Sequence record: NC_048186.1
Direction: 5' to 3' (one strand)
Length of the DNA stretch: 64,000 nt
DNA from: Escherichia phage vB_EcoM_KWBSE43-6
Under the pieces are notes generated by a model. It had not been told where the DNA came from. It saw nothing but the letters and a program-made list of their open reading frames with translations, and searched no databases. Both the position numbers and the translations under genes were made by a program. The first letter of the stretch is position 1; each line of letters opens with the position of its first letter. Positions 7,698 through 40,101 of this stretch are shown piece after piece.

Positions 7698-8083
7698 AAT
7701 ACACCATCCACGAGTTGGGCTTTCGTCATACCCAACAGTTGTTCTTTGTGTTTTTCATCCGCGCCGTTGGCAACCAAGAGCGCCCAACGTTCTTCATGGT
7801 ACTTCGGGTCCATGGCTTCATCAAACGATAGGTGATGGCGAAACATGATTGAGGCCACAGAATGAAGATTGTGCGCGGTTGCTCTTTGCAAAGTCCGAGT
7901 TGCTGTGATATGCTGTTTTTGATACTCAACGCCCATAAGACGCAATTCACGAATAATACGAATTGGTGACAAATCACCTTTCTCGTAAAGTTCTTTGATA
8001 CGCGATTTCTTAGGGTGTAATTGGCCGTCTGTTTCTTTCATGAACAAATCGTACAAATATTCGACATATTCTGTGTGAGTCAT
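7694..8083 (-). CDS. hypothetical protein
   Basis: 129-aa ORF overlapping next start by 4 nt. Confidence 0.5.
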   Translation of the reverse strand: MTHTEYVEYLYDLFMKETDGQLHPKKSRIKELYEKGDLSPIRIIRELRLMGVEYQKQHITATRTLQRATAHNLHSVASIMFRHHLSFDEAMDPKYHEERWALLVANGADEKHKEQLLGMTKAQLVDGVL

Positions 8084-8163
8084 AATTTTGATCCTTAGCG
8101 ATAAAAAGGGAACGAGCCAAATATAAGCCCATTCCCTTTATTGAAGAAATTGGTATTGCTCAG

Positions 8164-9381
8164 TTATTTCTTCATCAATGACATCAGATTAACACTCTTC
8201 CCAACAGGGGCGGTCTCCTGTTTGCGTTCAATACGCTCTTCAAGTTCCCAACGTGTTCCCTTCTGTAGATGCCAGATATGTAGGGGAACGCCCGTCTCAA
8301 AGAACACAGGCATCTTCCACTTCTGGACGCCTGGGACGTGCCCTGCGGGAGCCTTCTCACATAACAGGGTATCTGGTAGCCAAAGTGAACGCGCCTCCCA
8401 GAGTGCCGCGCAGGAGTACTCCGGCCAAATGCGTTCCATGTAGTCGATTTCGTCCCAGGTACGCTCCGCATCCCACCCGATATAACGAGTGTTCTTCAGA
8501 CGGAAGAATTTCTTCAACCAACACGCGCCAGAGGTCTCAAAGTTCAGACGGTTGATGAACGTCAGGTGACCGAATTCTTCAACGCATTCATGGAATGCCT
8601 TTTCCAAATCGGCTTCCAGGATGTCACACTCTTCATCGGTGATAGGACAGCCGTCGATCTTTTTCTTCCCGTGTTTGGTCACCCAATCATCACGGTTAGA
8701 AAGGAACGCCGCGCCGTTGCGGTTCGATTCGCTACCTTCACGGTCACGCAGCATGAAGCCAGGGACATCGATTTCCCACATGTTACCGAACACCATGTTC
8801 AGGGCTTCCAGGAAGTTCCAGGCGCTCAGACGGCCGAAGTATTTCCAGGACATTGCCGTGTCCCACAACTCAGTAAACTGGTCTTCTTTCATGGTGCATT
8901 CCAGCATCCAACGAAAAGAATCCATCTGAGTTTTACCGCCCAGCCAATCCACATAGGACTGAACACATGGGATCATCTTGGACTTGCGGTAGCGGCAATC
9001 AGTATCGAAGCGCATGCGTTCAAAGTTCAGATTATACCAGTCCGAGAAGCGCTGCATTTCTTCTTTGGTCTGCGGAGGAACCGGGAACTCAGAGTAGATT
9101 GTCCACGGGCCGATCGCATTATAGCAGCAACCCCAAAGAAACGCCATCCAGATCTTGCGCTCGATCTTTTCCAGATTGGTGAGGCCTTCTGTGACTTCAA
9201 TAGCATAATCCATCAGACGCATCTGCTGGTTGTGCTCTTCAGTATAGGACAGCGCTTCTACCCACGCCTTGAGCAGATACATCCGGTTCTCAGGCTTGCG
9301 GTAGTCAACCTTCAGATCAATCGGGTACTTCCATTGCTCAGGGGCTTTATACCCCTGCGGCATTTTAGATAAATGTGCCAT
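8164..9381 (-). CDS. hypothetical enzyme; candidate DNA base-modification transferase (aGPT-pyrophosphorylase-like placement)
   Basis: 405-aa ORF, ATG at 9381 with AAGGA SD; adjacent to P-loop kinase gene; functional call is by context only. Confidence 0.35.
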   Translation of the reverse strand: MAHLSKMPQGYKAPEQWKYPIDLKVDYRKPENRMYLLKAWVEALSYTEEHNQQMRLMDYAIEVTEGLTNLEKIERKIWMAFLWGCCYNAIGPWTIYSEFPVPPQTKEEMQRFSDWYNLNFERMRFDTDCRYRKSKMIPCVQSYVDWLGGKTQMDSFRWMLECTMKEDQFTELWDTAMSWKYFGRLSAWNFLEALNMVFGNMWEIDVPGFMLRDREGSESNRNGAAFLSNRDDWVTKHGKKKIDGCPITDEECDILEADLEKAFHECVEEFGHLTFINRLNFETSGACWLKKFFRLKNTRYIGWDAERTWDEIDYMERIWPEYSCAALWEARSLWLPDTLLCEKAPAGHVPGVQKWKMPVFFETGVPLHIWHLQKGTRWELEERIERKQETAPVGKSVNLMSLMKK

Positions 9382-9384
9382 ACA

Positions 9385-9765
9385 TTAATCCTTTTCGCCG
9401 ACGGAACTTGAAAGTTCTTCATCTCCAGGATGAGGCTGAACTGGCTCCAGTTGCACTTGATCTGCGGTGACCGGGCCGAATGCAGAGTTCCAGATATCGA
9501 CAAAGCGTTTGTCAGAAGTAACAACCCACATACGCTTGGCTTTATTGGAACGGTCAGCAATGAACGCCTGGGCATTGGCGTTAGTACGGACGAGACCGAC
9601 TTGGCGCCACTGACCAAAATCTTTAGACGCCGGGTTAGTGTTCAGCTGAAACTGTGGGATAACCCGGTTGTCTTCCGGATAATAACGGACAGCATTGATC
9701 ATCTTGGCATCGCCCTTATAATCAATAGCGATAGCCACGGCATCGCGGGGAATCAAAATTTTCAT
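9385..9765 (-). CDS. hypothetical protein
   Basis: 126-aa ORF. Confidence 0.5.
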   Translation of the reverse strand: MKILIPRDAVAIAIDYKGDAKMINAVRYYPEDNRVIPQFQLNTNPASKDFGQWRQVGLVRTNANAQAFIADRSNKAKRMWVVTSDKRFVDIWNSAFGPVTADQVQLEPVQPHPGDEELSSSVGEKD

Positions 9766-9766
9766 C

Positions 9767-9970
9767 TCATTTCCTTAAAAATAATTTATAGACAACAGGT
9801 ATCAAGAACGATAAGAAGCCGAACCAGTAAACCACATTCATGGTTTTCTTTTCTGCTTCTGATAGATCAATGAAACCATAATGATATACTATCATGGTTA
9901 ATAATGAGGCTAAACAAGTGATCGCCCCGACCAATAAAATTGCATCCAACCACTTGTTGTTCATCTTCAT
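9767..9970 (-). CDS. small membrane protein (two predicted TM helices)
   Basis: 67-aa ORF, hydrophobic segments. Confidence 0.5.
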   Translation of the reverse strand: MKMNNKWLDAILLVGAITCLASLLTMIVYHYGFIDLSEAEKKTMNVVYWFGFLSFLIPVVYKLFLRK

Positions 9971-10851
9971 TTCCTCAACATCATAGCCAGCACGTTAGAA
10001 CTTTTGGACAGCTGTTTCTTTTCATCAGCAGTCTTCTTGACAGTCGGGCGGCGGGTAGCCTTTTCCGGTACGCGATGCGCCAGCGGGTCTGAACCACCAA
10101 CTTCGCGTGTCATTGGATGGTCTTCGCAATACTTATAGAATTCTTTGAAGACGAACCCAGCGTCACGGACTTCATTGATGATCATGTGATGAATGGCATT
10201 GCCAATGACCCACAGCGGTGCGTCGAATGGCAATTGGGCAACTTCGCTGCCAACGCCGTTCTTTTTGTAGAGGACGTCCTGACCGCTGTATGAATCTACA
10301 ACGACATCCCAGCCCGCCGCCGCCATTTCAGATTTAGACTTTTCAAATTCTTTCTGATAAGACTCATTCCGAGTCCAGCCCGAATCCCCGGCTTCTTTAC
10401 CAGAACGCCCACGGATACGAGCATCATACTGATAACGATCCGGATACGTGAAGTACAACAGCGCCAGTTGCTCAATAGGATAATTGGCAAACAGCCATTC
10501 TGGACGCCATTTATCAGACAGCATCAACGGTTCACCCTCACAGACGAGCGTATATCCCGCGCTGAGATGTTCTTTGACCAGTTCGCGGGCGATATCACCA
10601 GAACCTGTCGCGGCATGGATAGCGTCCATCGAGGTCCACGAGGCAAGACCGGATTTGTTTGACGCAGTATACTGGCCGACAAACATTAATTTCAGTTCAT
10701 CAAAGGCCAGGCCAAACAGGCGCGTTTTATCGCCGATGGTATAAGTGACCTCGCGCGGCTCGAGGCGAGTACGCAGCCATTCTATGAACTGTACCACACG
10801 AGTGCCCTTGCCCGTGCCGCTTGTGCCTTTGATTACAATCAGTTTTGACAT
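9967..10851 (-). CDS. P-loop kinase; candidate 5-hydroxymethyluracil DNA kinase
   Basis: 294-aa ORF; Walker A GTSGTGKGT near N-terminus; ATG at 10851 confirmed. Confidence 0.55.
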   Translation of the reverse strand: MSKLIVIKGTSGTGKGTRVVQFIEWLRTRLEPREVTYTIGDKTRLFGLAFDELKLMFVGQYTASNKSGLASWTSMDAIHAATGSGDIARELVKEHLSAGYTLVCEGEPLMLSDKWRPEWLFANYPIEQLALLYFTYPDRYQYDARIRGRSGKEAGDSGWTRNESYQKEFEKSKSEMAAAGWDVVVDSYSGQDVLYKKNGVGSEVAQLPFDAPLWVIGNAIHHMIINEVRDAGFVFKEFYKYCEDHPMTREVGGSDPLAHRVPEKATRRPTVKKTADEKKQLSKSSNVLAMMLRK

Positions 10852-11222
10852 TAGTTGTCATCCTCAATACGCCATGATACACCGCCAAGCCAAGGCGACC
10901 AGAATACAGCGACCTTCTGGCGACCATATTCTTCGAATTTCACTTTATAACGGTCATCGAAGTCATAGAAAATTTCATCTTCTTCAGAACGTAATAAAGA
11001 ATCTACTGCTAATGAATGAAATTTCTGAGCTGCTCCAACGGGAGTAGGAGTTTCCATCCCCCTGATATAATTGTTTACAGCCGAAACGATCGGATGTACG
11101 ATGCTTTTCGCGGAAACTACAGGCTGAGTTGTAACTTTCAATTCGTTAGACACTTCAGACTCCTTGACGGACAAATTGGTAATGTGCAACCAGGCGGTCA
11201 ACGACTTCTGTAAAATTTTCAC
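10851..11222 (-). CDS. hypothetical protein (start uncertain)
   Basis: 123-aa ORF overlapping upstream gene by about 68 nt. Confidence 0.4.
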   Translation of the reverse strand: MKILQKSLTAWLHITNLSVKESEVSNELKVTTQPVVSAKSIVHPIVSAVNNYIRGMETPTPVGAAQKFHSLAVDSLLRSEEDEIFYDFDDRYKVKFEEYGRQKVAVFWSPWLGGVSWRIEDDN

Positions 11223-11946
11223 GCAGATAGTCGAAGTGGTTGCGGCCTTCTACTGGTTTAACATATATCATATTTTCTGAATCCGAAAGATCCAGTTTTT
11301 CATAATTCCCCTGAGGAACGAAGATGCTGAAAACATTGTTCCAGATGCACGGGTCGACATATTTCGGATTGTCGTCAATCAAAACATCGCCAGCAACCAT
11401 GTGCTTTTCATCCGTGCTGATGAAGCCATTGAAGATGTTCGGGAACTTGCCATACACGAACTGACGTTTGCTGCGTTCGTGCTCGGGTTCACATTTGGTG
11501 ACAGCAACAAATTCCACCATTTCAAACTTCATGAGCAGCGCATCATGCAAGTTGTTCAAGAACTCTACCGCACCGGGCAACGGCTGCATACGGGAGTACA
11601 GATCAGGTTGGCGCCAAAAGTCCATCGGGTCGCGTCCGTTTGACATATAATGGGTCTTACCGCCGATACTGACATATGAATGTGACCATGCCGGATGAGC
11701 ACGTTCACGCATCAGGATTGCCAAATCACCCGCATGGTTCATATAACATTGCTTGGTGATCGGCTGGAATTTAGCAGGGCCAACAATCCCGTCCGGGAGA
11801 CTTGCTTGGGCTTCCAGGTTTCCGTCATTAAACCATTTGACCCAAGGCGATAGACTATCGACGATTGTCAGATCAACGTCCACCAAAACCCGGTACAGGC
11901 CTCCGACCTTTGAGTTCATATCGTATAGGCAAGTCAGGTTGTTCAT
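11155..11946 (-). CDS. HAD-superfamily hydrolase-like protein (possible nucleotidase/phosphatase)
   Basis: 263-aa ORF; DxDxT-type motif VDVDLTIVD near N-terminus. Confidence 0.5.
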   Translation of the reverse strand: MNNLTCLYDMNSKVGGLYRVLVDVDLTIVDSLSPWVKWFNDGNLEAQASLPDGIVGPAKFQPITKQCYMNHAGDLAILMRERAHPAWSHSYVSIGGKTHYMSNGRDPMDFWRQPDLYSRMQPLPGAVEFLNNLHDALLMKFEMVEFVAVTKCEPEHERSKRQFVYGKFPNIFNGFISTDEKHMVAGDVLIDDNPKYVDPCIWNNVFSIFVPQGNYEKLDLSDSENMIYVKPVEGRNHFDYLRENFTEVVDRLVAHYQFVRQGV

Positions 11947-12302
11947 TTATCTTCCTCCACTTTATCATATCCTGTCGCTTTACAACCATCAGCCTGGCAG
12001 TCGCCATACAGGACAACCATGGAGTCTTTTACGAAAGTAGAACAATGATACAGCTCCGTCGTTGGATCGCTGTCATCGTAATTGCAAACGGTCTGGATCG
12101 GGCCGGGAGTAGTACCCTGGAGGGCGGCATGTGCTTTAACCATGTCATCCATTTTGGTCTGAGCCTGGTCTTGGGTGAAGTCCGGCCCGCTGAGATCTGG
12201 TGTGTCCAAGAGAGCAGAGCAAGCAGACAGAGACACTGACAGAGTGAACGCCAGCATGATTTTGTAGAACAGAACGGTTTTATTGAGTTTCATCTTAATC
12301 AC
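11943..12302 (-). CDS. putative lipoprotein
   Basis: 119-aa ORF; signal peptide followed by lipobox-like LSAC. Confidence 0.55.
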   Translation of the reverse strand: MIKMKLNKTVLFYKIMLAFTLSVSLSACSALLDTPDLSGPDFTQDQAQTKMDDMVKAHAALQGTTPGPIQTVCNYDDSDPTTELYHCSTFVKDSMVVLYGDCQADGCKATGYDKVEEDK

Positions 12303-12359
12303 CTATTTTTGTCAAAGGGAAACAACAAGGGGAATTATATCCCCCTGTCGGTTATTGAA

Positions 12360-12647
12360 TTAGTGAGAAGCCAAAGAATTATTGTGGTCTACCATAAATT
12401 GGTAGTTGCCACCGAATTTTTTGACCGCATCAATCTCGTGTTGTCCCCATTGATATTGGTAACGCTGGAACAATTCTCCTGGCACAACTTCAATCTCAAA
12501 CTCAAAGAAGCAGTCTTGGCAGAGAACTTTCCCTTCTTCAGTGAAAGATTTTGCTATCAAAAGCGTCACGTCCGGGCCGGGTCTTCCAAATATATACAAA
12601 TATGGATTCCCCAAAACCACTTCATTACCACGTTGATCAACAATCAT
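12360..12647 (-). CDS. hypothetical protein
   Basis: 95-aa ORF directly downstream of DNA polymerase. Confidence 0.45.
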   Translation of the reverse strand: MIVDQRGNEVVLGNPYLYIFGRPGPDVTLLIAKSFTEEGKVLCQDCFFEFEIEVVPGELFQRYQYQWGQHEIDAVKKFGGNYQFMVDHNNSLASH

Positions 12648-12650
12648 TTT

Positions 12651-15647
12651 CTACCCCTTTTTACCCATCATCGCTAATAAATTGACCCGACGTTTGTGAG
12701 ACCAGCCAACGACCGTCAGTATAGACTGGATCGGTTCGATGAATGACTTCTCAAATGCCGTGTTGTAATCCACCCATTTCGCCATATCCAATTCTTCGGG
12801 GAAGAACTCTGGATAGGCGAAATAGTTCTGACCGAATGGATTACCAGCTTTCAGCAGAACAATGTTGACTTTATCGCCAGATTCTATTAACGGTAAATCG
12901 AGTTCTTCATGTTTCTCCACCAGGCGATTGTAGCCGACGCATGCCTTTGCAGCAAAGTGCGCCCCAGAGATAAAGGATCCGTCAGGAGCCACGCACTTCT
13001 CAATATCAGAGACACCTGATGCCTTCGCAATATCATCGACGCTCAGTTTCATGTACTCATCTTTATACGTCTTGATGAGGTCTTGGACTTCGCTTTCCGT
13101 GCCTAAAAGAATGCGCTCATAGCACTTGATGAGACGTTCACGACACCATTCTGGCGTTGTTGATTTACGCGCCTCAAGACCTTTGAATTTGATCTTCGGC
13201 TTCTCATATTTGATGCCTTCACTGTCATAGACAGCCATGCAATACATCTTCTTGGCACGCCATACTGCAGCAGACGCAATGACTTCACGCTCCCAAACCA
13301 TGCGCTGTTCGTAGCCATTCATCGTATTGCAGAGCATCTGCGCCCATTCATTGGTCTTGGGCTGGTAATTCTCCTTGATCCATTGGTCGATATTATCAAC
13401 GAGTTTGTGGTGATCAGTTTCTCCTTCCCACAATTTCTTGACCAGGCGCTCGATACAGATATAGTTCGAGTCCGTGTCCCCCGCGATAACATAATCCAGG
13501 CCGCTGGTCCCGCACAATCCGTTAAGATAATCGTCAGTGTAACGTTTGTTCCACTTATTGATCAACTGCCCTGAAGTTGTAATCGCTTCCGCAATGTTGA
13601 GGTTAAAGTATTCTTTAAACCAGACGTTAGAGATTGCACCATAACCTGCGTTCATCAAGATCTTCAGACCTTGCTGTAACGTGTCTTGGGCAACGCCAAG
13701 GTCTTCCCATTTGTGCATCACTTCGGACAGGTGATCAAGGTCGATGTTTTTGTGCTCTTCATACCAGTCTTGGTCAAAGTAGCGGGATTTCATCGCGGAT
13801 TCAAGGTGGAAGTCACCCTTAGACATTTCCTTACACCAGCCCGCCCATTGCTCATACTTCAGACCCTTGGCCTTCTCACCTTTACGGTCAGCGTAAATGC
13901 CGCGCATGATCTCAGAGAGGAAGGACATTTTCTCATTACTGAAGAATTGAACGTTTGGTGTAAACGACACGTTGTAACGCACGAGGGTTTCAAACCGGAA
14001 TTCACCCAGGGCAACCAGTTCATCTACAACCTGTAGGCGTTCATCAATCGCGCGGAGCAGTTTGTCATGAAGATTCTTCATATGGCGACGTTTATGCATC
14101 GGCGTCGTCATATCATTCATCTTGACAGCAAGCTCTTCACACATGGCTTCAATGATTTCACGACGGGTGTGTTTATCACCGATAATCGTTTCAGGCCCGA
14201 GGTTGTACTGCTGAATGATGTGTGGGTACAGGGAGTTCAAGTCCTCTGAGAAGACCCAATAATAGATCCCTGGCGCCACTTCCATGACATATGCGCCTTC
14301 AAAGTTTGTCGGCCCATCATAGACGCGCTGGACTTTGGGAACAATCCCCTTTTCGTACAGCTTGTAATAACACATGGCCAACCATGGCGCTACCGTGCCC
14401 AAACCGTCTTCAAAGTTAGATTTGGTGCGATACGCCAGGACAAACATCAGCTGAATGAGACGCAGTTTTTGTTCCAGACGCCAGACGAGTTTGACGTCCT
14501 TAATACCATACCGGGTGTGCTTACAATAATCGTTGAAATACAGATCAAACAGTGATTTGCTCTCACTGTAATCCATCTTCTTCTCACCGAGTTCGCAATA
14601 TGCAATCCAGTCCAAAGAATATCTTTCACGTGTGGTGTACGTGTGCTTCTTATAGACCTGCAGGTAATCCAACATAGGACAACCAACGAACTGATAAGTC
14701 GTGATGTCACCTTTCTTATCCCGGATGATGCGCTTTTTTATCTTACCCCAAGGACTCAGGCGATTAGTGTCGGCTTCACCCAATACTTGCATACAGCGTT
14801 CTACCAGATACGGGCTATCGAATTGCTCAATGTTCCAGCCTGTCCAACCGTCAAAGGCCCGCGCTTCCCAGTAATCAACAAATGACCGCAGCAGATCTTG
14901 TTCGGTGGTGAACTCTTGATATTCTACTTCCAGACCACCGATCTCTTCATCATTTGGGTCATATTTGAACTTATGGCGATCCTTAGAACACGGCATCCCC
15001 CAGACCATATATTTGTTATTGGTCAGATCCTGGAGCTGAATGAGCGTAATCGGGAATGCCGCATTCATGTTCTGGGTGATCTTACCATTTGCGTCAATAA
15101 TGGGGAACTGGTCGGTCACGTTGTTGGAGATAAAGGAGCCGGGGAAATGCTCGCGGACGAACGCATGGTTGGCCAAGATACGTTTATGGAACTGACGGAC
15201 GCGCGCCGCGCTCCCTTTGAACGTCTGTAGTTCTATCGTCGGGTGCGGGAATGGACCTTTAGTCATCTGCCCATCGACCCATCCTGCAGAGAACACTTCG
15301 ATATCAAGATTGGCGATATGAATGTTGTTGTAATCTGGCTGAATCGTACCGGGGAAACTGTGGGCGATGAATTGGTAGGCATAGTCAGTCTGACCGTATA
15401 TCGCCGCGCCTTCTACATCCTTGTATTCCTCCATATAGTTGTCGGCGTCACGCATAGACGCAAACTTTTTAGAAATCAGAGGTTCGTTCAACAGGCCGAC
15501 TTTTTCAACATTAGAATAATCAGCCGTGGGTAAATACAGAGTGGGTTCGAATTTCTTTTTGAGCATGCGACGGTTGCCCATGTCATCTGCAATTCGAACT
15601 AACAGGTCGTTGCCTTGCCGGGCGACGTTAGTATAGAAAACAGTCAT
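12651..15647 (-). CDS. DNA polymerase, family B (T4 gp43-like)
   Basis: N-terminus MTVFYTNVARQGNDLLVRIADD aligns with T4 gp43 as recalled; motifs DIEV (exo), DLNSLYPHI, KILMNAGYG, YVIAGDTDS; true start ATG at 15647 with GGAGA SD (ORF track extends to 15830). Confidence 0.9.
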   Translation of the reverse strand: MTVFYTNVARQGNDLLVRIADDMGNRRMLKKKFEPTLYLPTADYSNVEKVGLLNEPLISKKFASMRDADNYMEEYKDVEGAAIYGQTDYAYQFIAHSFPGTIQPDYNNIHIANLDIEVFSAGWVDGQMTKGPFPHPTIELQTFKGSAARVRQFHKRILANHAFVREHFPGSFISNNVTDQFPIIDANGKITQNMNAAFPITLIQLQDLTNNKYMVWGMPCSKDRHKFKYDPNDEEIGGLEVEYQEFTTEQDLLRSFVDYWEARAFDGWTGWNIEQFDSPYLVERCMQVLGEADTNRLSPWGKIKKRIIRDKKGDITTYQFVGCPMLDYLQVYKKHTYTTRERYSLDWIAYCELGEKKMDYSESKSLFDLYFNDYCKHTRYGIKDVKLVWRLEQKLRLIQLMFVLAYRTKSNFEDGLGTVAPWLAMCYYKLYEKGIVPKVQRVYDGPTNFEGAYVMEVAPGIYYWVFSEDLNSLYPHIIQQYNLGPETIIGDKHTRREIIEAMCEELAVKMNDMTTPMHKRRHMKNLHDKLLRAIDERLQVVDELVALGEFRFETLVRYNVSFTPNVQFFSNEKMSFLSEIMRGIYADRKGEKAKGLKYEQWAGWCKEMSKGDFHLESAMKSRYFDQDWYEEHKNIDLDHLSEVMHKWEDLGVAQDTLQQGLKILMNAGYGAISNVWFKEYFNLNIAEAITTSGQLINKWNKRYTDDYLNGLCGTSGLDYVIAGDTDSNYICIERLVKKLWEGETDHHKLVDNIDQWIKENYQPKTNEWAQMLCNTMNGYEQRMVWEREVIASAAVWRAKKMYCMAVYDSEGIKYEKPKIKFKGLEARKSTTPEWCRERLIKCYERILLGTESEVQDLIKTYKDEYMKLSVDDIAKASGVSDIEKCVAPDGSFISGAHFAAKACVGYNRLVEKHEELDLPLIESGDKVNIVLLKAGNPFGQNYFAYPEFFPEELDMAKWVDYNTAFEKSFIEPIQSILTVVGWSHKRRVNLLAMMGKKG

Positions 15648-15725
15648 TGTATTCTCCAGGTTATCCGTGCCGTTAGCACGTTCCCATAATTTAGCCGAGG
15701 AGGGTTCATTGACCAAGGAGTTTAT

Positions 15726-16298
15726 ATGGCAATCCCCTTGGTAAGCATGATTCCTGGCGCTTTGAAACAGCTCTGGAATCTGGGAACTGATTTGATTCAA
15801 TATAAGCGGGAAATTGTAAGCGCCAAGCACGATGTCAAGTTAGAAGCGATCAAATCGTCTTCCGACTGGGAACTATCTAAGATCACAGAAGTTGGTGGTT
15901 CTTGGAAAGATGAATTCTGGACTATCGTTCTTGCTATCCCCGCGATCCTCGTTATGTTAGCTCCAGTTGTGGAACTGCTTTTGTTCCCCGGTGAATATCA
16001 TAAAGGGGATTTCATCAAAGCAGTAGTCGGTGGCATGCAAGCCCTGGATACCGCGCCTGATTGGTATACTGCTTCATTATTGACAGCAATTAGTGCATCA
16101 TTCGGTATCAAAGGCTACAACCACTTTAAAAGCAACAGCCGCAAGGCGCAAGCTGTCGATGCCCTTAAACAATTCGGCGTCAAAGTGGTTAGCAAAGATC
16201 CCACTGTTGTTACTCAGTCGGGTTCTCCCGATCTTGAGTCTGCTCCCCCAGCTGGGTCTACTGCGACCTCTGGTGCGTGGCCTGATCTGAAGAAATAA
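15726..16298 (+). CDS. membrane protein, hypothetical
   Basis: 190-aa ORF with central TM segment; divergent from polymerase gene. Confidence 0.5.
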   Translation: MAIPLVSMIPGALKQLWNLGTDLIQYKREIVSAKHDVKLEAIKSSSDWELSKITEVGGSWKDEFWTIVLAIPAILVMLAPVVELLLFPGEYHKGDFIKAVVGGMQALDTAPDWYTASLLTAISASFGIKGYNHFKSNSRKAQAVDALKQFGVKVVSKDPTVVTQSGSPDLESAPPAGSTATSGAWPDLKK

Positions 16299-16305
16299 GG
16301 TTCAA

Positions 16306-16329
16306 GGGGCTTCGGCCCCTTTCTTTTGG
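16306..16329 (+). terminator. rho-independent terminator
   Basis: aaggggcttcggcccctt followed by tcttttg. Confidence 0.6.
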
Positions 16330-16338
16330 TGTTAAGGA

Positions 16339-16551
16339 ATGGATGTGGTAAACAAGAGATTGCTCGTCACCCAGGGCGGGGCGACGATAGTAAGAGGCCG
16401 GATTTATGAACAAACTAAACTCGGCTCACACAAAACTAGACTGAAAGTGAAAGCGCCAGATGGTGGTTGGCCCACAAATGTCATTGTTCCCGATGGTCTC
16501 TTAGAACGAGGGTTCGCGACATATCGAGGGGCAGAGTTCAAAATTTATTAA
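16339..16551 (+). CDS. hypothetical small protein
   Basis: 70-aa ORF. Confidence 0.4.
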   Translation: MDVVNKRLLVTQGGATIVRGRIYEQTKLGSHKTRLKVKAPDGGWPTNVIVPDGLLERGFATYRGAEFKIY

Positions 16552-16645
16552 AATATTTATTGAAAAACTTTACTTCTTCAATAACTGACGTATACTTCAA
16601 ATTGTAGTACGAACAAACAACAAATTGAAGAGAAGGAAATACATC

Positions 16646-17173
16646 ATGAAAATTTTAGCAGAAACCGCAAACAAAAACACAGTTTTGTCTGATGCAGGTG
16701 AAGGCCACGTTTTCGGTAACTTCTTCGGTGCTGTGGAAGGCGACAAAATTTCTGCTGGGCGTTACATGGTCGTATATCATCCTATCATGAAAGGCGTTCG
16801 CCAAGAGATGAAACAAAAATTTGACTCCTACGTTGACGCCATGCAGTTCTTCCTGTTCCAGAAGCGCCATGAGCGTTTTGTAGAAGCCAAAGACGCCGGG
16901 CTGGACGATGCAACTGCCGAACTGATTGCCGAAGGAAAAATGACTCTTGAAGCCGCTCTGGGCGATATGGATATGGACGCCGAAGCACATTGGATTGAAT
17001 ATTCCGCATATCAGAACGAATGCGAAGATGATCCGGAAGATGACGGGTTTGATCCAGATCTCCACGGCGGCGAAGACGACAATACCCCTCCTCTGGAAAT
17101 TCTGATGGCAGGTGGTCAGGCCGCTTGGGAATGGCAGAACGAGAAAAATGCCTGGCTGGATAGCCGCCTCTAA
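16646..17173 (+). CDS. hypothetical acidic protein
   Basis: ORF track 16625..17173; ATG at 16646 preceded by GAAGGAAA SD. Confidence 0.55.
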   Translation: MKILAETANKNTVLSDAGEGHVFGNFFGAVEGDKISAGRYMVVYHPIMKGVRQEMKQKFDSYVDAMQFFLFQKRHERFVEAKDAGLDDATAELIAEGKMTLEAALGDMDMDAEAHWIEYSAYQNECEDDPEDDGFDPDLHGGEDDNTPPLEILMAGGQAAWEWQNEKNAWLDSRL

Positions 17174-17231
17174 TATCAGGTAAAGCCCCTCCGGGGGCTT
17201 CTTCCCCAAATTTGAAATGTAGGACTATATC

Positions 17232-17774
17232 ATGACAATACCTAAAACTGCTGTGCGCCTTGCAGTCGAGCCTCTCTTATCACAGGCTGAAGACGCCGCT
17301 GTCATCTCGGCGAACAATATTATTGCCAAAGTGATGACGGATCTTGAATCCCATGGGTGGGACATTAACAAAGCTGCTCCCTGGCCGTCGTCTGTTGGGA
17401 TTCGTTTAGGGCATCCCGATTATAATAAGATGAAGTCAAAGCACACTCTGTATCACTCCCTGGTGAAAATCGTGTCTTCAACATATCAACCGGGACAACC
17501 TGAGATTGTCAAGGCGGATGAAGACCGCCAAAAACGTTTCATTGAAGAAGCCCGCCGGAATGCGGCGTTGCAATATGAGTCGTTCATCTGCAAACTGGAA
17601 GACAAAATCGGAGGGCACAGCGCTGCTACCCTAGAAGGTTCTCATGTCTGGGGATATTCAATCCTGACAGTGACAACCCCAGAGGGAATTCAGCGCTGGA
17701 AGACACAGACGATTGTTAACGTCTCTGTCCTGGGCAAAATCTTCAACCAATATCCTACTCGTCGGGTGAAATAA
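17232..17774 (+). CDS. hypothetical protein
   Basis: 180-aa ORF. Confidence 0.55.
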   Translation: MTIPKTAVRLAVEPLLSQAEDAAVISANNIIAKVMTDLESHGWDINKAAPWPSSVGIRLGHPDYNKMKSKHTLYHSLVKIVSSTYQPGQPEIVKADEDRQKRFIEEARRNAALQYESFICKLEDKIGGHSAATLEGSHVWGYSILTVTTPEGIQRWKTQTIVNVSVLGKIFNQYPTRRVK

Positions 17775-18145
17775 TGAAAAATTTTGCAGAAGAACTTCAA
17801 GACCATATCGATAAGGCGAAGTCTTGGAATGCCATGGGTAACGTAGAAAAGGCTGTTGACATCTTCGTGAAGGCGTTAAAGAAAGATCTGATAACACAAG
17901 CCAAACATGGAGTTGAAATTGATGACATGGGTTATGTTGTCGGTAGTCAATCATTCGACAACATCTATGCGGCATTTCACCAAGCATATAAATCCCCTCA
18001 TTACCCGACCGATTTTCAAGTCAAGAAGTTCAAGAATCTGTTGAGAGCCAGGTTGTTAGACGAAGGACTGAAGTTTGAATTAAGGAAGGATGAACGCACG
18101 GATATTATTACCATGAAATTCACTGTCCACTCTGACAGCATCTAA
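17774..18145 (+). CDS. hypothetical protein
   Basis: 123-aa ORF, start overlaps previous stop. Confidence 0.55.
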   Translation: MKNFAEELQDHIDKAKSWNAMGNVEKAVDIFVKALKKDLITQAKHGVEIDDMGYVVGSQSFDNIYAAFHQAYKSPHYPTDFQVKKFKNLLRARLLDEGLKFELRKDERTDIITMKFTVHSDSI

Positions 18146-18146
18146 A

Positions 18147-18172
18147 AGAAGGGGCTTTCGCCCCTTTTCTTA
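18147..18172. terminator. bidirectional terminator hairpin between convergent genes
   Basis: aaggggctttcgcccctt with T-runs on both strands. Confidence 0.6.
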
Positions 18173-18622
18173 TTCCCAGAAATCATCGTCATCATCGACT
18201 TCCGCCAATTCAGTATCCAGATCTTCATCCGAATACTCCGGCAATTTACCATTCTGTTGCAGGTAAGCGATCTCATCATCTTCCAGCTGCAGGTCGGTGG
18301 CGATAAAAAGTGCATCGCTTTCTTCGTCATGCTCAATGCTGTACGACGTATATTCCATGCCCTGAACGGTAATGATGATGCTGGTCGGATCATCGGGGTC
18401 GACGTGTGCCTCGAAAGGAACTCCATCAATCGGAGCGTCTTCCAGGAAAGTTGCCAGGGCGATAGCAGCACGAACAACGTCGGTGCCTTCTACGGACGCA
18501 TAGATCTCTTCAGCGCCAGTTTCCCCGCGCTCAAAAAACTCTATGGTTGTGCCGTCTTGAACGCCAGTCCATATTGGAGCGTCCAGTATTGATTCAGATT
18601 CGAATAAAGTGGAGATTGCCAT
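18170..18622 (-). CDS. hypothetical acidic protein
   Basis: 150-aa ORF, poly-Asp C-terminus. Confidence 0.5.
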   Translation of the reverse strand: MAISTLFESESILDAPIWTGVQDGTTIEFFERGETGAEEIYASVEGTDVVRAAIALATFLEDAPIDGVPFEAHVDPDDPTSIIITVQGMEYTSYSIEHDEESDALFIATDLQLEDDEIAYLQQNGKLPEYSDEDLDTELAEVDDDDDFWE

Positions 18623-18654
18623 GTCAGTGATCCTCAGTGTGGATTATGGGGTAT

Positions 18655-19122
18655 TTAGGCTTCCCCCGTCCGCACCGCGATACCAGATTTGTATAACACC
18701 ATCTCAACAATCATCGTATCGTCTAGAGAAACAACAGAGTCATAACCCATATCCATCAAAGCACGAGCATTTTCATGAACAGTACCCGGAGGAATATCCA
18801 ATTCCCTCATCTTGTCTTCCCAAACGGATACATTATTGGAATGTAGGACCAGAGTTCTCCGAGGATTCACCCTAAAGACAAGAACATGTGGTTCACCAAA
18901 CTGGCGATAACGAGTAGCATTTTCCGCATACTGAAGAGCGACTTCTGGTTTTCCTGACAGATAGAACCCCGGCCCCATTGTCCCGGCGTCAGTCTGTCCA
19001 AACTTCTTAAAGTCGAATTCATCAAAAACAACATTGGATCCATGATACAACTCCAAATTTGTCATATCTGGGACGGCATCATGATAAAAGAATTCCAAAA
19101 AGGTTTTCATAAAATACCCCAT
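18655..19122 (-). CDS. hypothetical protein; possible ADP-ribosyltransferase-like fold
   Basis: 155-aa ORF; N-terminal YHGS motif followed by GPGFYLS; weak motif-level resemblance only. Confidence 0.4.
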   Translation of the reverse strand: MGYFMKTFLEFFYHDAVPDMTNLELYHGSNVVFDEFDFKKFGQTDAGTMGPGFYLSGKPEVALQYAENATRYRQFGEPHVLVFRVNPRRTLVLHSNNVSVWEDKMRELDIPPGTVHENARALMDMGYDSVVSLDDTMIVEMVLYKSGIAVRTGEA

Positions 19123-19150
19123 ACGGATTGTATGGGGTATTTAGGAGGGA

Positions 19151-19303
19151 TCAGTTACCACCAGGACAGAACACGTTCCCGCAGAGAGGACCGCCATCAT
19201 TATCTCTGCGACCACAAGTGCTACAGAAACCACCATAATTCGGCTTCTGCTTGAGTGGAGAAACGGTTTTCTGTTGTTGAGGGACGACTTTCTTTATTTT
19301 CAT
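19151..19303 (-). CDS. small Cys-rich (zinc-ribbon-like) protein, 50 aa, not in ORF track
   Basis: Manual translation MKIKKVVPQQQKTVSPLKQKPNYGGFCSTCGRRDNDGGPLCGNVFCPGGN; ATG overlaps stop of upstream PLP-enzyme gene (ATGA coupling). Confidence 0.45.
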   Translation of the reverse strand: MKIKKVVPQQQKTVSPLKQKPNYGGFCSTCGRRDNDGGPLCGNVFCPGGN

Positions 19304-20670
19304 TCAGGTTTAAACTCATTCACAGGAACATTTTCAGGGATAACCAACTCAGGACATGCTGCCTTCATCGGTTCTACATACGGCTTACTACCAACGATCC
19401 AGAACAGAGAGTTCTCGTTCAACAACTCTGGTTTGTGTTCCTGGATCCACGTCATTACCTTGCCTTCATAGCGAGGATGAAGTTCAATGTCACCCCATTG
19501 GTATTCCATCAGATCGTTGTAACGAACCCAATTGGTGGTGTGCAAATCCCAGTGATGAACATTAAAGCGCGGAGAACCATCCGCTCTCTCCAGTTCTTTC
19601 GGGTCGTAACGACCTAACAGGCCAAGCAGTGAAACGCTCTTAGGGGACTGCGGAGCGTCCTTCTTACCATACAGATAATCCGGGTTGTCATGATAATGGC
19701 GAGTGAAGTCCACAATGTGCGGTAAATTGGCATATTCACCAATAATGCGCAGACGACTTTCAATGAAGTCAAGGCGATTAGGACCGATGCCGATCAGGTA
19801 CACATTTTTCAGATTCGGTTTCGGGTGCATTGCCAGGCCCGTCAGGATACTGGTGCAAGAGTTGCATGAACCCGCCGGGATGATCAGATCAGTAATATGA
19901 TCCGGAATGTTGGCGACCTGTTCACCACCCAGCATATGGAATCCAGCGATGCGCTCCGGGGAATGCAATTTATGGTCCAGAGTGATCCCATACTCCAGAT
20001 AATACGCCTTTGGATTCTGTTGTTCAATCAGCTTCTTACAGCGAGGCTGAATGGTGCTGTTATAACCAGAACCGACGAAATTGAAGACGCTACCGAACCA
20101 TGCCGACATTGCTACCATGTCATGGTTCATGCAAGTGGTTGGCTTGGTTGCACCCAAGACTGTAGTCGTATGCCCGCCGAAGTGCCGAGAGACTGCCGTC
20201 GCCATAGGGGACTGCGGACTACCAACGACAGTACCATGGATGATATCGGGGGAGCCTCCGGCTTTCAGATGCTCAACCATGAGCCAGATAGCCTGACGGA
20301 GTTTGCTGCCGTTGATACCCTGTTGCCCGTTTGCATAGTTGGACAGCGGCGCGAAGTAATCTTCACGTTTGAACCAAACCTGTTGGTTGGTTACGGGGTT
20401 TGCAACGAGTTCACACGGGGTGTGTTTGTAGAGATAATCTTCCCAGTGAACCAGGTTGCGGTCTAGAGAAAGAGTTTTGAAGATAGTTTTGTTGTGATGT
20501 TGAGAGATAATACCCCCCATCGACGATTCTTCCTTTAACGCATCGCTGACAAATTCTTCAAGGATATCTTGGTTGATACTACTTTCACAGCTTTGGACTG
20601 TAAATGGAGTTGTATTTGTTTCAACAACAGTTTTGATGTCATTTAAAAGTTTCTGGGTTTTATCGTTCAT
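19300..20670 (-). CDS. PLP-dependent enzyme-like protein; candidate DNA hypermodification enzyme
   Basis: 456-aa ORF; ATG at 20670 with GGAGA SD; Gly-rich segments and Lys-containing motif GINGSKLRQ suggest a fold-type II PLP enzyme, motif-level only. Confidence 0.45.
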   Translation of the reverse strand: MNDKTQKLLNDIKTVVETNTTPFTVQSCESSINQDILEEFVSDALKEESSMGGIISQHHNKTIFKTLSLDRNLVHWEDYLYKHTPCELVANPVTNQQVWFKREDYFAPLSNYANGQQGINGSKLRQAIWLMVEHLKAGGSPDIIHGTVVGSPQSPMATAVSRHFGGHTTTVLGATKPTTCMNHDMVAMSAWFGSVFNFVGSGYNSTIQPRCKKLIEQQNPKAYYLEYGITLDHKLHSPERIAGFHMLGGEQVANIPDHITDLIIPAGSCNSCTSILTGLAMHPKPNLKNVYLIGIGPNRLDFIESRLRIIGEYANLPHIVDFTRHYHDNPDYLYGKKDAPQSPKSVSLLGLLGRYDPKELERADGSPRFNVHHWDLHTTNWVRYNDLMEYQWGDIELHPRYEGKVMTWIQEHKPELLNENSLFWIVGSKPYVEPMKAACPELVIPENVPVNEFKPE

Positions 20671-20739
20671 TCTATTTCTCCTGTAGACATTGGCATATCA
20701 TAGCGTATCTACAGGAGTATAGAAAAGGAGAATCTCGAT

Positions 20740-21348
20740 CTACTTCTTCAGAAAAGAAAGTAGACGACGGAAGAATGACTGTTTAGGATTCGATACCGGA
20801 TCTTTTCCAACTACGGAGTCAGTGCTTTTTACGGCACACTTTATCTCTAAAATTGTTTTATTCAAATCAGAGCTATCAACAACAGTCGGTTTCACCGGGA
20901 CTTCACGACTACGAACCATGGTTTCATAGTCGCGGGCGATCTCAATGTATTTCCGGCGCTCAGTGAAGAAATCAACTGCTTTCACTTTCCGGCGGCGGGC
21001 ATGAGAACTCTCTTCACCATAGTAGTCGTAATTGTTACGAACCATCCAGTTTACCGCTTGTTCAAACGTGTTGAACACCAGCATGGGAATACCGTCGCCT
21101 TTCTCAATACAATCCAGTGAAGAGTACCCGACGATGACGGTCATACCTTTCTGGAACAACTTACAGGGGATGGCGTTACCGGGAGTGTTGCGGTCGCGCG
21201 GGACGATATGATCTTCACGGTGAACAAAGTTCGGATACAAGAACTCATTGAGAGTTCCTTTGTAGCCCTTATATGTGTACATACGGACGAATGGAGGAAC
21301 GTCAACTACCACTTCGTTCAGTTCCCAGATAGTAACATTGCGCATCAA
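20740..21348 (-). CDS. hypothetical protein
   Basis: 202-aa ORF. Confidence 0.5.
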   Translation of the reverse strand: MMRNVTIWELNEVVVDVPPFVRMYTYKGYKGTLNEFLYPNFVHREDHIVPRDRNTPGNAIPCKLFQKGMTVIVGYSSLDCIEKGDGIPMLVFNTFEQAVNWMVRNNYDYYGEESSHARRRKVKAVDFFTERRKYIEIARDYETMVRSREVPVKPTVVDSSDLNKTILEIKCAVKSTDSVVGKDPVSNPKQSFFRRLLSFLKK

Positions 21349-22307: not shown

Positions 22308-22381
22308 TGGAAGGAGCACCAGGATTCGAACCTGAGATCATGGGATCAAAGCCCATTGCCTTACCGCTTGGCTATGCTCCT
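22308..22381 (-). tRNA. tRNA-Gln (anticodon UUG), CCA encoded
   Basis: Manual cloverleaf: acceptor AGGAGCA/TGCTCCT, D-loop GCCAAGCGGTAAGGC, anticodon loop CUUUGAU, T-loop TTCGAAT. Confidence 0.8.
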
Positions 22382-22541
22382 AAAATTGGGAGAGGTACGC
22401 CAGAGTCGAACTGGAAACAGTATTTGACTGGATTATTTGCATTTAGGCCAGTCATCCCCTGTCTTTTGATCTCCACCCCATCTGCGGCCTGGTGCCGGAT
22501 GCACCCAACATTCAGGTTGCGGGAGAACATACCCCTTAATT

Positions 22542-22625
22542 TGGTGAGGGAGGATGGATTCGAACCACCGAAGCCGAAACACCTGATTTACAGTCAGGCC
22601 CATTTGACCACTCTGGTACTCCCCC
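22542..22625 (-). tRNA. tRNA-Tyr (anticodon GUA), long variable arm, CCA encoded
   Basis: Manual fold: anticodon arm CCTGA-CUGUAAA-TCAGG, long variable arm, T-loop TTCGAAT. Confidence 0.75.
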
Positions 22626-23043
22626 GAATTTGGACGGGCTTCTCACCCGATTGTGCATTTGATCTGCCGTAGCCCAACTCCCCGCGTCGTAACGCCGATT
22701 GGTTAACTGGCACCAGTGCCTTCTGGTGTGATCCCTTGGAACTTTACAGGCTTCGCGCCAAACCATTTCTGGTAGTTGGGGCATCGTTTCCGATGTAGGG
22801 TTCCCCCATTTTAACACAGCTGGCTGCAACGCTTACTGTGTTTGTATCAGAGTGTCCGGTGTAGCATTCCGTGAGGTGCGCACTACTGTAGCCTCTACAC
22901 TCTGAATTTGTATGAAGTGGGAATCACTCTCCTGGGTGTCTGTATCCTGCGGCCTTACATTGGCAGCTATCGCGCGATTCGCACTTCCGAAGGCGCTTTG
23001 AGACACTCCACTTCAATTTGATGATGCCACACCACGTCTGGTT

Positions 23044-23114
23044 TGTTGAATCCAGGATTCGAACCTGGGATACCTGCCTTACAGGCGAGTCGCTTTGCCT
23101 CAGCGTTATTCAAC
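23044..23114 (-). tRNA. tRNA, identity uncertain (anticodon loop CUGUAAG, possibly GUA; one mismatch in anticodon stem)
   Basis: Acceptor GTTGAAT/ATTCAAC, T-arm CCAGG-TTCGAAT-CCTGG; anticodon stem imperfect, could be a pseudo-tRNA. Confidence 0.5.
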
Positions 23115-23239
23115 TGGCACCAATTTGGTGGGCGTTACTTTCGTCGGTTTCAGATTCCGTTCGGCTATTGGACGTTGTTCCAAAGAACTTGTCGGTCGCG
23201 TACTTCGTGCTTACTCGCTTTCGTTTCACACCCATTGTC

Positions 23240-23315
23240 TGGCGATGGTGGCAGGACTTGAACCTGCGACATATGGATTAACAGTCCACCGTTCTACCGA
23301 CTGAACTACACCATC
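23240..23315 (-). tRNA. tRNA-Asn (anticodon GUU), CCA encoded
   Basis: Acceptor GATGGTG/CACCATC, D-arm GTTCAGTCGGTAGAAC, anticodon loop CUGUUAA, T-loop TTCAAGT. Confidence 0.8.
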
Positions 23316-23322
23316 ATCAATT

Positions 23323-23409
23323 TGGCGGAAAGTCTGAGATTCGAACTCAGGGGGCATTACACCCGACGATTTTCAAGACCGTTGCCTTAAACCGCTCGGC
23401 CAACTTTCC
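23323..23409 (-). tRNA. tRNA-Ser (anticodon UGA), long variable arm, CCA encoded
   Basis: Acceptor GGAAAGT/ACTTTCC, D-loop GCCGAGCGGTTTAAGGC, anticodon loop CUUGAAA, variable arm CGGGTGTAATGCCCC. Confidence 0.8.
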
Positions 23410-23415
23410 TTTGTA

Positions 23416-23501
23416 TGGTGGAAGATACAGGATTCGAACCTGTGCAACCTTTCGGTTGTACACCTTAGCAGGGTGCTGCAATACCGCTCTGCCAATCTTC
23501 C
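23416..23501 (-). tRNA. tRNA-Ser (anticodon GCU), long variable arm, CCA encoded
   Basis: Acceptor GGAAGAT/ATCTTCC, anticodon loop CUGCUAA, long variable arm, T-loop TTCGAAT. Confidence 0.75.
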
Positions 23502-23692
23502 TATTTATTCGCTTCTATGGCTCGAAGTTGCTTCTCAGCGTCTTCTTTGGATTCATGTGTTCCCAAAACCTTTGTTTTGGTATGGTCCAACACAACCCAA
23601 TGATCACCACGCTTTTCAACAAACTCAACAATTTCTTTGTTGTCAGTCGCAAGACCATCCCATTCAGTTAAGAACTCACCGAACGTTTTCAT
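23501..23692 (-). CDS. small hypothetical protein embedded in tRNA cluster
   Basis: ORF track 23501..23719 (non-ATG start); likely start MMKTFGEF at 23692; protein-like composition. Confidence 0.5.
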   Translation of the reverse strand: MKTFGEFLTEWDGLATDNKEIVEFVEKRGDHWVVLDHTKTKVLGTHESKEDAEKQLRAIEANK

Positions 23693-23919
23693 CATACTCA
23701 CCAATCGTTTATTGAACAACTGGTTTATTTAGGTGCTCCCGAGGCGGTATTTTAATCCCGCGATCCCATCTCGCCTGCCGTAGACCAGAGCTTGTTGGCA
23801 GTCCAACAAATTTGGCGGGGTCTGAGGATTTTCACCTCACCTGCTGGATTGGCCTCCAGCCGTTCTCTCTGGGGACTCGCCGTCCGGACAGCTATCCCTT
23901 AAACTATCGCCCCTTAATA

Positions 23920-23995
23920 TGGTGATCCTGATTGGTTTTGAACCAATGACCAATCGATTATGAGTCGACTGCTCTAACCACTGAGCTACAGGACC
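23920..23995 (-). tRNA. tRNA-Met/Ile-type (anticodon CAU), CCA encoded
   Basis: Acceptor GGTCCTG/CAGGATC, D-arm GCTCAGTGGTTAGAGC, anticodon loop CUCAUAA, T-loop TTCAAAA. Confidence 0.75.
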
Positions 23996-34542: not shown

Positions 34543-34543
34543 C

Positions 34544-34780
34544 ATGAATATAAATTGTGTTTTTGTGAAAGACGAAATTCCCCTTGAGAAACAAGATGAC
34601 TTTTTGAAATTATTTTTGGAAAGAATATCATTGGAATTCTCTGATGTCGTGATAACGGCAGAATGGGGAGACGATGAAACTGCTGTCGTTTCAGAGGATT
34701 GTTCTGATTACGTCAAAGCAAATTATCAAAGATTTGTAGACGGTCTTAAACAAGACCTCATTATTTTCGATTATTTCTAA
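34544..34780 (+). CDS. small acidic hypothetical protein
   Basis: 78-aa ORF starting 2 nt after tailspike stop. Confidence 0.45.
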   Translation: MNINCVFVKDEIPLEKQDDFLKLFLERISLEFSDVVITAEWGDDETAVVSEDCSDYVKANYQRFVDGLKQDLIIFDYF

Positions 34781-34819: not shown

Positions 34820-34822
34820 CAA

Positions 34823-37402: not shown

Positions 37403-37404
37403 TA

Positions 37405-40098: not shown

Positions 40099-40101
40099 TT
40101 T

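Follow-up and report, generated by a model that had tools for sequence, protein, structure and literature searches.

The DNA stretch analysed here, hereafter the window, comprises 64,000 nucleotides of Escherichia phage vB_EcoM_KWBSE43-6 (NC_048186.1). Within 12.5 kb of it, at positions 8164 to 20670, lie four open reading frames (ORFs), all on the minus strand, that a first-pass annotation had put forward as a candidate gene set for thymidine hypermodification of the kind described for ViI-like phages: an enzyme of 405 amino acids (8164-9381), a P-loop kinase (9967-10851), a haloacid dehalogenase (HAD)-like hydrolase (11155-11946) and an enzyme resembling those that depend on pyridoxal phosphate (PLP; 19300-20670). 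All four ORFs are found at these coordinates, as are the kinase motif GTSGTGKGT (residues 9-17) and the HAD motif DVDLT (residues 23-27), and the genes do flank a DNA polymerase gene. The polymerase belongs to family B, with matches to the Pfam families DNA_pol_B_exo1 and DNA_pol_B. The 405-amino-acid enzyme, the kinase and the HAD protein each have a strong profile match, and every one of the four ORFs, that of the PLP enzyme included, is conserved in hundreds of phage genomes. Thus, the four are not chance ORFs.

To place the region among known phages we used positions 8000-21000 of the window as a megablast query against a phage collection, in which 282 phage records matched. The top matches are the Klebsiella phages cp21, phi1_175010, P01, KZag1, Menlow and XDRKpn-1, with 93-97% DNA identity, and ViI-like phages of Salmonella, Escherichia, Dickeya and Serratia rank next with 80-90%. 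None of the records searched is identical to the window. Menlow is classified in the Ackermannviridae, Taipeivirus. Judged by these matches, the window is part of a lytic ViI-like phage genome of the Ackermannviridae, belonging to Taipeivirus or close to it, whose nearest relatives are Klebsiella phages. The gene order is that of ViI, small ORFs included: gp226, and further on the polymerase, orf237, orf239 (the HAD protein), orf240, gp243, orf244, orf245 and gp247.

The kinase gene (9967-10851, minus strand, 294 amino acids) is the orthologue of ViI gp243 and encodes a predicted 5-hydroxymethyl-deoxyuridine (5-hmdU) DNA kinase of clade 2. The protein matches the Pfam family PF18747 (HMUD2) over its entire length (residues 1-294 of 294, profile positions 1-297 of 298) at 3.9e-138 and 460.1 bits, the cut-off being 25, and is 71% identical to gp243. 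Its P-loop (Walker A motif), which is the same in gp243, is of the adenylate kinase type, GxxGxGKGT. On 5-hmdU DNA in vitro, ViI gp243 yields the same phosphorylated nucleotide of 418 u as M6 gp54 (PMC8989533). Its orthology and synteny with gp243 lead us to predict that the kinase uses ATP to convert 5-hmdU in DNA, by phosphorylation of the hydroxymethyl group, into 5-phosphomethyl-deoxyuridine (5-PmdU).

The 405-amino-acid enzyme (8164-9381, minus strand), the orthologue of ViI gp247, had been assigned to the pathway as a protein of unknown family. The assignment stands, and the family can be named: the protein is an amino-acid:DNA transferase (ADDT, aGPT-Pplase clade 2). It matches Pfam PF18724 at 1.8e-58 (198.4 bits, cut-off 26.2; residues 49-292, profile positions 2-228 of 232) and is 85% identical to gp247 over the full length, without gaps across the catalytic domain. 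Purified gp247 has been shown to act as a serine:DNA transferase (PMC8989533). By analogy, the ADDT is predicted to exchange the phosphate of 5-PmdU in DNA for the side-chain oxygen of serine, which would give O-serinyl-thymidine. Candidate catalytic residues are E282 and C287 in the motif ETSGAC, both invariant in homologues from ViI, from Pseudomonas and Vibrio phages and from a mycobacteriophage whose protein is 26% identical. They occupy the same Pfam profile position, about 223, as E243 and C247 of PaMx11 gp46, in which Cys247 has been proposed as the nucleophile from the crystal structure (PMC11472151). Our mapping of the Cys/Glu pair is based on the motif, the invariance and the shared profile positions; hhalign pairs the same residues weakly, with a probability of 7%, and BLASTP gave no significant alignment between the ADDT and gp46.

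It could be argued that the same enzyme families lead to another product here, the transferase using a different amino acid or nucleophile from that of gp247, so that the virion base would not be 5-(2-aminoethoxy)methyl-deoxyuridine (5-NeOmdU). Substrates do vary within the ADDT family, from glycine in M6 and PaMx11 and serine in ViI to putrescine in PhiW-14 (PMC8989533), and the ADDT differs from gp247 at 15% of its residues. We nevertheless regard a different product as very improbable. The two transferases share their 85% identity without insertions or deletions across the catalytic domain, and the PLP enzyme, the partner of the transferase, is 88% identical to gp226 and needs a free alpha-amine such as an O-linked serine offers. 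Moreover, the ADDT is 99.8% identical to a protein of Klebsiella phage Trex_ER12, which has been named among the closest relatives of the Taipeivirus phage phiHS2, and phiHS2 DNA contains 5-NeOmdU at about 16% of dT by high-performance liquid chromatography with tandem mass spectrometry and is resistant to restriction (bioRxiv 10.64898/2026.05.19.726188).

The fourth ORF (19300-20670, minus strand, 456 amino acids) encodes the orthologue of ViI gp226, to which it is 88% identical over 396 residues. The activity of gp226 as a decarboxylase has been shown with the purified protein (PMC8989533), and by analogy the predicted reaction of the PLP enzyme is the decarboxylation of O-serinyl-thymidine in DNA, which would yield 5-NeOmdU. 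The lysine K123, in the motif GINGSKLRQ, aligns with K92 of gp226, the residue that the ViI authors proposed for the internal aldimine (PMC8989533). In an alignment of 34 sequences, which reaches down to homologues of 42% identity, the lysine is invariant (as K73 of a shorter construct). The first-pass annotation had suggested a comparison with profiles of PLP fold types. With 24.4 bits (E = 2.2e-5), the match to Pfam PALP (PF00291) does not reach the gathering threshold of 35, and many orthologues in the protein database carry a precomputed PF00291 match. We therefore tested the fold directly by modelling. An AlphaFold2 model built from 34 homologues (predicted local distance difference test (pLDDT) 89.8, predicted template modelling score 0.89) matched fold-type II PLP enzymes in Foldseek with a probability of 1.0, namely D-cysteine desulfhydrase (E = 2.4e-10), 1-aminocyclopropane-1-carboxylate (ACC) deaminase (1j0a among the entries), tryptophan synthase beta and the dehydratases of serine and threonine. 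The model thus places the protein in fold-type II, in agreement with a published Phyre2 match of gp226 to 1j0a (PMC8989533). A cysteine synthase-type PLP enzyme had been listed beforehand as an argument against the pathway; the argument is not valid, as the genuine ViI decarboxylase is itself of fold-type II (tryptophan-synthase-beta/cysteine-synthase-like).

The PLP gene has a variable 5′ part. The start at 20670 is preceded by an AGGAG Shine-Dalgarno sequence, and the context of the start codon, 20656-20745, is conserved in ViI, Menlow and XDRKpn-1. It is followed by an in-frame segment at 20494-20655 (about 160 nt, codons ~6-59) without a match in these three phages, so that residues 1 to about 60 form a variable N-terminal extension. 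This segment therefore accounts for the variation in protein length, which is 401 amino acids in XDRKpn-1, 424 in ViI, 456 in the window and up to 529 in other homologues. A shorter start at ATG 20520, giving 406 amino acids and resembling the 401-amino-acid annotation of XDRKpn-1, was considered and rejected on account of the conserved context at 20670. The Menlow annotation splits the gene into two coding sequences of 411 and 50 amino acids, a sign that Menlow may have a frameshift or an error of sequencing here. Two distant homologues of the PLP enzyme lie on unrelated metagenomic phage contigs, with an ADDT or HMUDK_hel gene at most 10 kb away.

In public records of relatives the kinase gene is called guanylate kinase, and the PLP gene goes under the names of DNA repair protein, threonine dehydratase or ammonia-lyase. 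Were these names correct, the genes would be ordinary metabolic ones with a part in the salvage of deoxynucleoside monophosphates (dNMPs) and the breakdown of amino acids, and DNA would not be their substrate. The fold of the PLP enzyme is indeed that of threonine/serine dehydratases and cysteine synthases, and the P-loop of the kinase is of the nucleoside monophosphate kinase type. We find this hardly credible. The scores against HMUD2 and ADDT are very strong, the Pfam profile search returned no guanylate kinase family for the kinase, and the metabolic-enzyme models of NCBIfam were unmatched, with zero NCBIfam matches for the ADDT, the kinase, the HAD protein and the PLP enzyme. The ViI proteins to which the three enzymes are 71-88% identical act on DNA in vitro, whereas the identity of the PLP enzyme to true dehydratases and desulfhydrases among its structure matches is only 12-16%.

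The remaining member of the proposed set, the HAD protein (11155-11946, minus strand, 263 amino acids), is the syntenic orthologue of ViI orf239, with 70% identity, and is a 5′(3′)-deoxyribonucleotidase of NT5C type by its match to Pfam PF06941 (NT5C; 8.7e-9, 35.9 bits, cut-off 24.8), which covers only residues 109-197. All four HAD motifs can be assigned: D23-x-D25-x-T27 for motif I, T150 for II, K160 for III and D191-D192 (IDDNP) for IV. The best relatives of solved structure are the mitochondrial and cytosolic 5′(3′)-deoxyribonucleotidases (mdN and cdN), at E of about 2e-3; motifs I and IV align with both, and T150 and K160 with mdN. These two enzymes prefer dUMP and dTMP, and older phages of Bacillus that replace T induce a dTMP nucleotidase. 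By its sequence, the HAD protein probably dephosphorylates pyrimidine dNMPs (dTMP and/or dUMP) and shapes the nucleotide pool, acting on the pool and not on DNA.

A role at the DNA level, such as dephosphorylation of 5-PmdU in DNA to reset or limit the modification, would fit the location of the gene within a translationally coupled string between polymerase and kinase, a position conserved from Klebsiella phages to ViI and to Dickeya and Erwinia phages, and the partial extent of modification in such phages (16-40%) makes a limiting activity conceivable. We consider such a role improbable all the same. The nearest characterised relatives, mdN and cdN, hydrolyse free dNMPs, and the orthologue was not needed for 5-NeOmdU formation, as the five ViI genes with which the base was reconstituted do not include it (PMC5889632). 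The family is also more widespread than the transferase: phage records that match the HAD query number 545, those that match the ADDT query 377, and HAD homologues occur in rV5-like Escherichia and Cronobacter phages and in phages of Campylobacter and Aeromonas, all of them groups without a match to the ADDT. In a small sample, namely three metagenomic neighbourhoods of distant PLP homologues with ADDT or HMUDK_hel genes, there was no NT5C gene. The HAD protein is thus at most an accessory enzyme of the nucleotide pool, and its inclusion is the sole weak part of the finding. Of the gene set proposed by the first-pass annotation, the kinase, the 405-amino-acid enzyme and the PLP enzyme can be kept, as can the order of kinase, aminoacyl transfer and PLP-dependent decarboxylation, since the three are syntenic orthologues of gp243, gp247 and gp226; the HAD protein probably falls outside it.

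In ViI the modification involves further genes. ViI gp67 (kinase 1), the thyA-like dUMP hydroxymethylase, gp160 (aGPT-Pplase1), the dNMP kinase and the dUTPase gave no tblastn match in the 64-kb window, which fits the positions of these genes elsewhere in the ViI genome. XDRKpn-1, ~97% identical in the region searched, has all five, at 62-86% identity to the ViI proteins; its thymidylate-synthase-like dUMP hydroxymethylase is 86% identical to ViI orf66, and its pathway genes fall into the Pfam families HMUDK_HMUD1, Thymidylat_synt, HMUDK_hel (aGPT-Pplase1) and dUTPase_2. By gene content, then, the window appears to hold only the post-replicative part of a ViI-type pathway, and by analogy with XDRKpn-1 we infer that the pathway is complete in this phage.

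From these assignments and the published chemistry the following course can be proposed. Outside the window, a thymidylate-synthase-like dUMP hydroxymethylase, a dNMP kinase and a dUTPase would supply 5-hmdUTP, which the family-B polymerase (12651-15647) would incorporate opposite A. In duplex DNA, 5-hmdU would then be phosphorylated at its hydroxymethyl group by the clade-2 kinase with ATP, which would give 5-PmdU. Next, the ADDT would flip the base out and the thiolate of Cys287 would attack C6, whereupon the phosphate would depart to leave an exocyclic methylene; addition of the side-chain hydroxyl of free L-serine to the methylene would give 5-O-serinyl-thymidine. This is the route described for ViI gp247, with a covalent Cys-C6 intermediate and an exocyclic methylene that is attacked by free L-serine through its side-chain oxygen (PMC8989533). 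Finally, the PLP enzyme (Lys123) would bind the attached serine as a Schiff base through its free alpha-amine and remove CO2, the product being 5-NeOmdU. A fraction of the virion thymidines would in this way acquire a side chain with a positive charge, by which many restriction endonucleases would be blocked.

Several points weigh against this interpretation. It rests on orthology, and the window itself is without the dUMP hydroxymethylase, kinase 1 and aGPT-Pplase1, so that the full pathway is taken from a close relative. The PALP match of the PLP enzyme stays under its cut-off, and the hhalign comparison of the ADDT with PaMx11 gp46 is statistically weak. Searched with phmmer, the Protein Data Bank (PDB) gave no match to a solved structure for any of the three enzymes (ADDT, kinase and PLP enzyme), for the ADDT even at E <= 10. 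The pathway literature searched does not mention a nucleotidase, and we found no experiment there that establishes a role for the HAD protein. Lastly, the extent of modification varies, from about 40% in ViI to about 16% in phiHS2, and its level in this phage is not predictable.

Taken together, these results establish the identity and family of the three genes along with their synteny and catalytic residues, and we conclude that the region 8164-20670 very probably constitutes the post-replicative half of a ViI-type thymidine hypermodification pathway yielding 5-NeOmdU. That this particular phage carries 5-NeOmdU is expected by analogy with ViI, CBA120 and phiHS2, in which the base has been demonstrated (PMC5889632, PMC6449724, bioRxiv 10.64898/2026.05.19.726188).

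The other genes of the region follow those of ViI closely. The longest ORF of the polymerase spans 12651-15830 (minus strand), and ATG 15647 gives 998 amino acids, as in Menlow and ViI; it is most likely the true start. The ORFs that run from the gene following the polymerase to that of the ADDT overlap or abut (11946/11943, 11155/11153, 10851/10851, 9970/9967, 9767/9765 and 9385/9381), so that this string is apparently translationally coupled. Its first gene (11943-12293, minus strand) encodes a DUF7292 protein of 116 amino acids (Pfam PF23964, 5e-52), a putative lipoprotein with the lipobox LSAC and the orthologue of ViI orf237; the tblastn match to orf237 starts at 12293, and the relatives are annotated as putative lipoprotein. 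Between the HAD and kinase genes lies that of a DUF7254 protein of about 100 amino acids (10851-11153, minus strand; Pfam PF23912, 5.7e-49), the orthologue of ViI orf240. Its start is uncertain, the best candidate being GTG 11153 after AAGGAG, and the Menlow homologue is annotated with 102 amino acids. Two more small genes separate the kinase from the ADDT. One, at the position of ViI orf244 (9767-9970, minus strand), encodes a hydrophobic protein of 67 amino acids that matches phrog_4514 at 7e-32 and, from its sequence, probably has two transmembrane segments; the gene at this position is annotated as a membrane protein in relatives. The other (9385-9765, minus strand) encodes a conserved protein of 126 amino acids, the orthologue of ViI orf245 (62% identity by tblastn), that matches phrog_4163 at 2.6e-68 and has no match in Pfam.

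Directly 3′ of the ADDT stop codon, RNA folding predicts a hairpin resembling an intrinsic terminator (8105-8139, minus strand), with a 14-bp stem and a U-run. Its energy is -21.8 kcal/mol (z = -3.1), and none of 200 shuffled sequences folds as well. A terminator is annotated at the equivalent position in Menlow, and the hairpin is the probable end of the gene string. A scan for sigma-70 promoters returned 32 sites where 22 +/- 5 are expected by chance and is too uninformative for placing a promoter. At the other end of the string, an ORF of 95 amino acids (12360-12647, minus strand) with a good Shine-Dalgarno sequence lies between the polymerase stop codon and a terminator-like hairpin (12323-12350) that precedes the DUF7292 gene. 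The insert that carries it, roughly 295 bp, is absent in ViI, Menlow and XDRKpn-1, and the ORF was found in only two records of the phage collection, the Klebsiella phages KP6 and phi1_175010, with about 91% identity. It has no Pfam or PHROG family and is an orphan, moron-like gene.

The conserved string from polymerase to ADDT might also hold accessory parts of the pathway that have so far gone unrecognised, with the HAD protein as a phosphatase selective for dTMP or directed at 5-PmdU and with the four small ORFs as further components. We think this unlikely, if less so than the alternatives weighed above. If true, the phosphatase would set the fraction of T positions that start as 5-hmdU and hence the final modification level of 16-40%, and it would bear on the origin of unmodified T in such phages.

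Just downstream of the PLP gene lies a small ORF (18655-19122, minus strand) with a probable start at ATG 19110, giving about 151 amino acids. The protein has sub-threshold Pfam matches to ART-PolyVal (27.7 bits) and DUF3990 (27.1 bits), and all 18 of its 18 database homologues carry both. H27 (LYHGSN), Y54 (GPGFYLT) and E140 are invariant. An AlphaFold model (pLDDT 78) gave a weak match (E = 5e-4) to the anti-CRISPR protein 6kyf, which we take to be the ADP-ribosyltransferase AcrIF11, followed by a cyanophage pre-ejectosome protein, PARP4/tankyrase and diphtheria toxin. The motifs and the model suggest that the protein looks like a minimal ADP-ribosyltransferase of the H-Y-E class, possibly serving in anti-defence or in host takeover. 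Menlow and ViI have the gene, XDRKpn-1 does not.

Two further features of the window were noted. Seven tRNA genes are clustered at 22308-23995 (minus strand): Gln, Tyr, Tyr, Asn, Ser(TGA), Ser(GCT) and Met. Of the two tRNA-Tyr genes, the second, tRNA-Tyr(GTA) at 23044-23114, has 71 nt compared with 84 nt and the lowest score (41.5 bits), is unannotated in XDRKpn-1 and may be a degenerate or atypical copy. At ~34000-44000 the G+C content is 40-43% as against about 46-48% elsewhere in the window. By synteny with XDRKpn-1 and ViI, this part is the tail-spike/depolymerase cassette between the baseplate wedge gene and vriC, a region of known host-range exchange between phages.

The assignments make it possible to correct the annotation of this group of genomes, in most records of which the pathway genes are mislabelled or called hypothetical protein. 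Kinase 1 of XDRKpn-1 (L006, 20151-20813), for example, matches Pfam HMUDK_HMUD1 at 3.5e-105 and is labelled terminase small subunit, and the XDRKpn-1 gene at 14317-15522 of L001 is among the systematically misannotated ones, as are genes in several GenBank records. DNA of this phage should bear 5-NeOmdU on some of its thymidines and hence resist many Type II enzymes; ViI DNA resists 71% of more than 200 tested (PMC6449724). The expected base matters for cloning, mapping and nanopore base-calling. Phages of the group are also candidates for therapy against K. pneumoniae, where the modification may affect how they evade host defences.

The hypermodification system as such is already known. The chemistry of the ViI pathway was established in 2018 and 2021 (PMC5889632, PMC8989533), 5-NeOmdU was reconstituted with five ViI genes, and in 2018 Klebsiella phage 0507-KN2-1 was already listed among the ViI-like phages that encode a 5-hmdU DNA kinase (5-HMUDK) (PMC5889632). 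That Klebsiella phages of Taipeivirus carry these genes is published, and knowledge of the mechanism is unchanged by our analysis. ViI (Vi01) has the same three enzymes (gp243 71%, gp247 85% and gp226 88% identical), gene order around the polymerase, catalytic Cys/Glu pair, P-loop and PLP lysine. It differs in its host, Salmonella as opposed to Klebsiella for the nearest relatives of the window, in its shorter gp226 (424 amino acids, 456 here), the N-terminal extension in the window being longer and non-homologous, and in being without the 95-amino-acid ORF after the polymerase gene. These differences suggest nothing that would point to a different chemistry. The Taipeivirus phages Menlow, 0507-KN2-1, Trex_ER12 and XDRKpn-1 and the Escherichia phage phiHS2 are closer still, with DNA 93-97% and ADDT up to 99.8% identical, and differ by small insertions and deletions that affect the N-terminal segment of the PLP enzyme, the presence of the ADP-ribosyltransferase-like gene and the insert with the 95-amino-acid ORF.

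More distant systems share part of this scheme. M6 and PaMx11, which make 5-(2-aminoethyl)-deoxyuridine (5-NedU) and 5-acetylaminomethyl-deoxyuridine (5-AcNmdU), and Delftia phage PhiW-14, which makes putrescinyl-thymidine, likewise employ a 5-hmdU DNA kinase alongside an aGPT-Pplase/ADDT of clade 2 acting on 5-PmdU. M6 likewise uses a homologous PLP decarboxylase, and PaMx11 gp46 belongs to the same Pfam family as the ADDT of the window, with an equivalent Glu/Cys motif. In these phages, however, the nucleophile is the alpha-amine of glycine or is putrescine, in contrast to the serine oxygen of the ViI type, and there are additional enzymes that are absent here, a radical S-adenosylmethionine (radical-SAM) isomerase or a flavin adenine dinucleotide (FAD) oxidoreductase with an acetyltransferase. 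For the HAD protein the comparison is with mdN and cdN (NT5C), with which it shares the HAD motifs I-IV and an alignable cap and core region, and from which it differs in its low overall similarity and in an insertion of roughly 70 residues after motif I.

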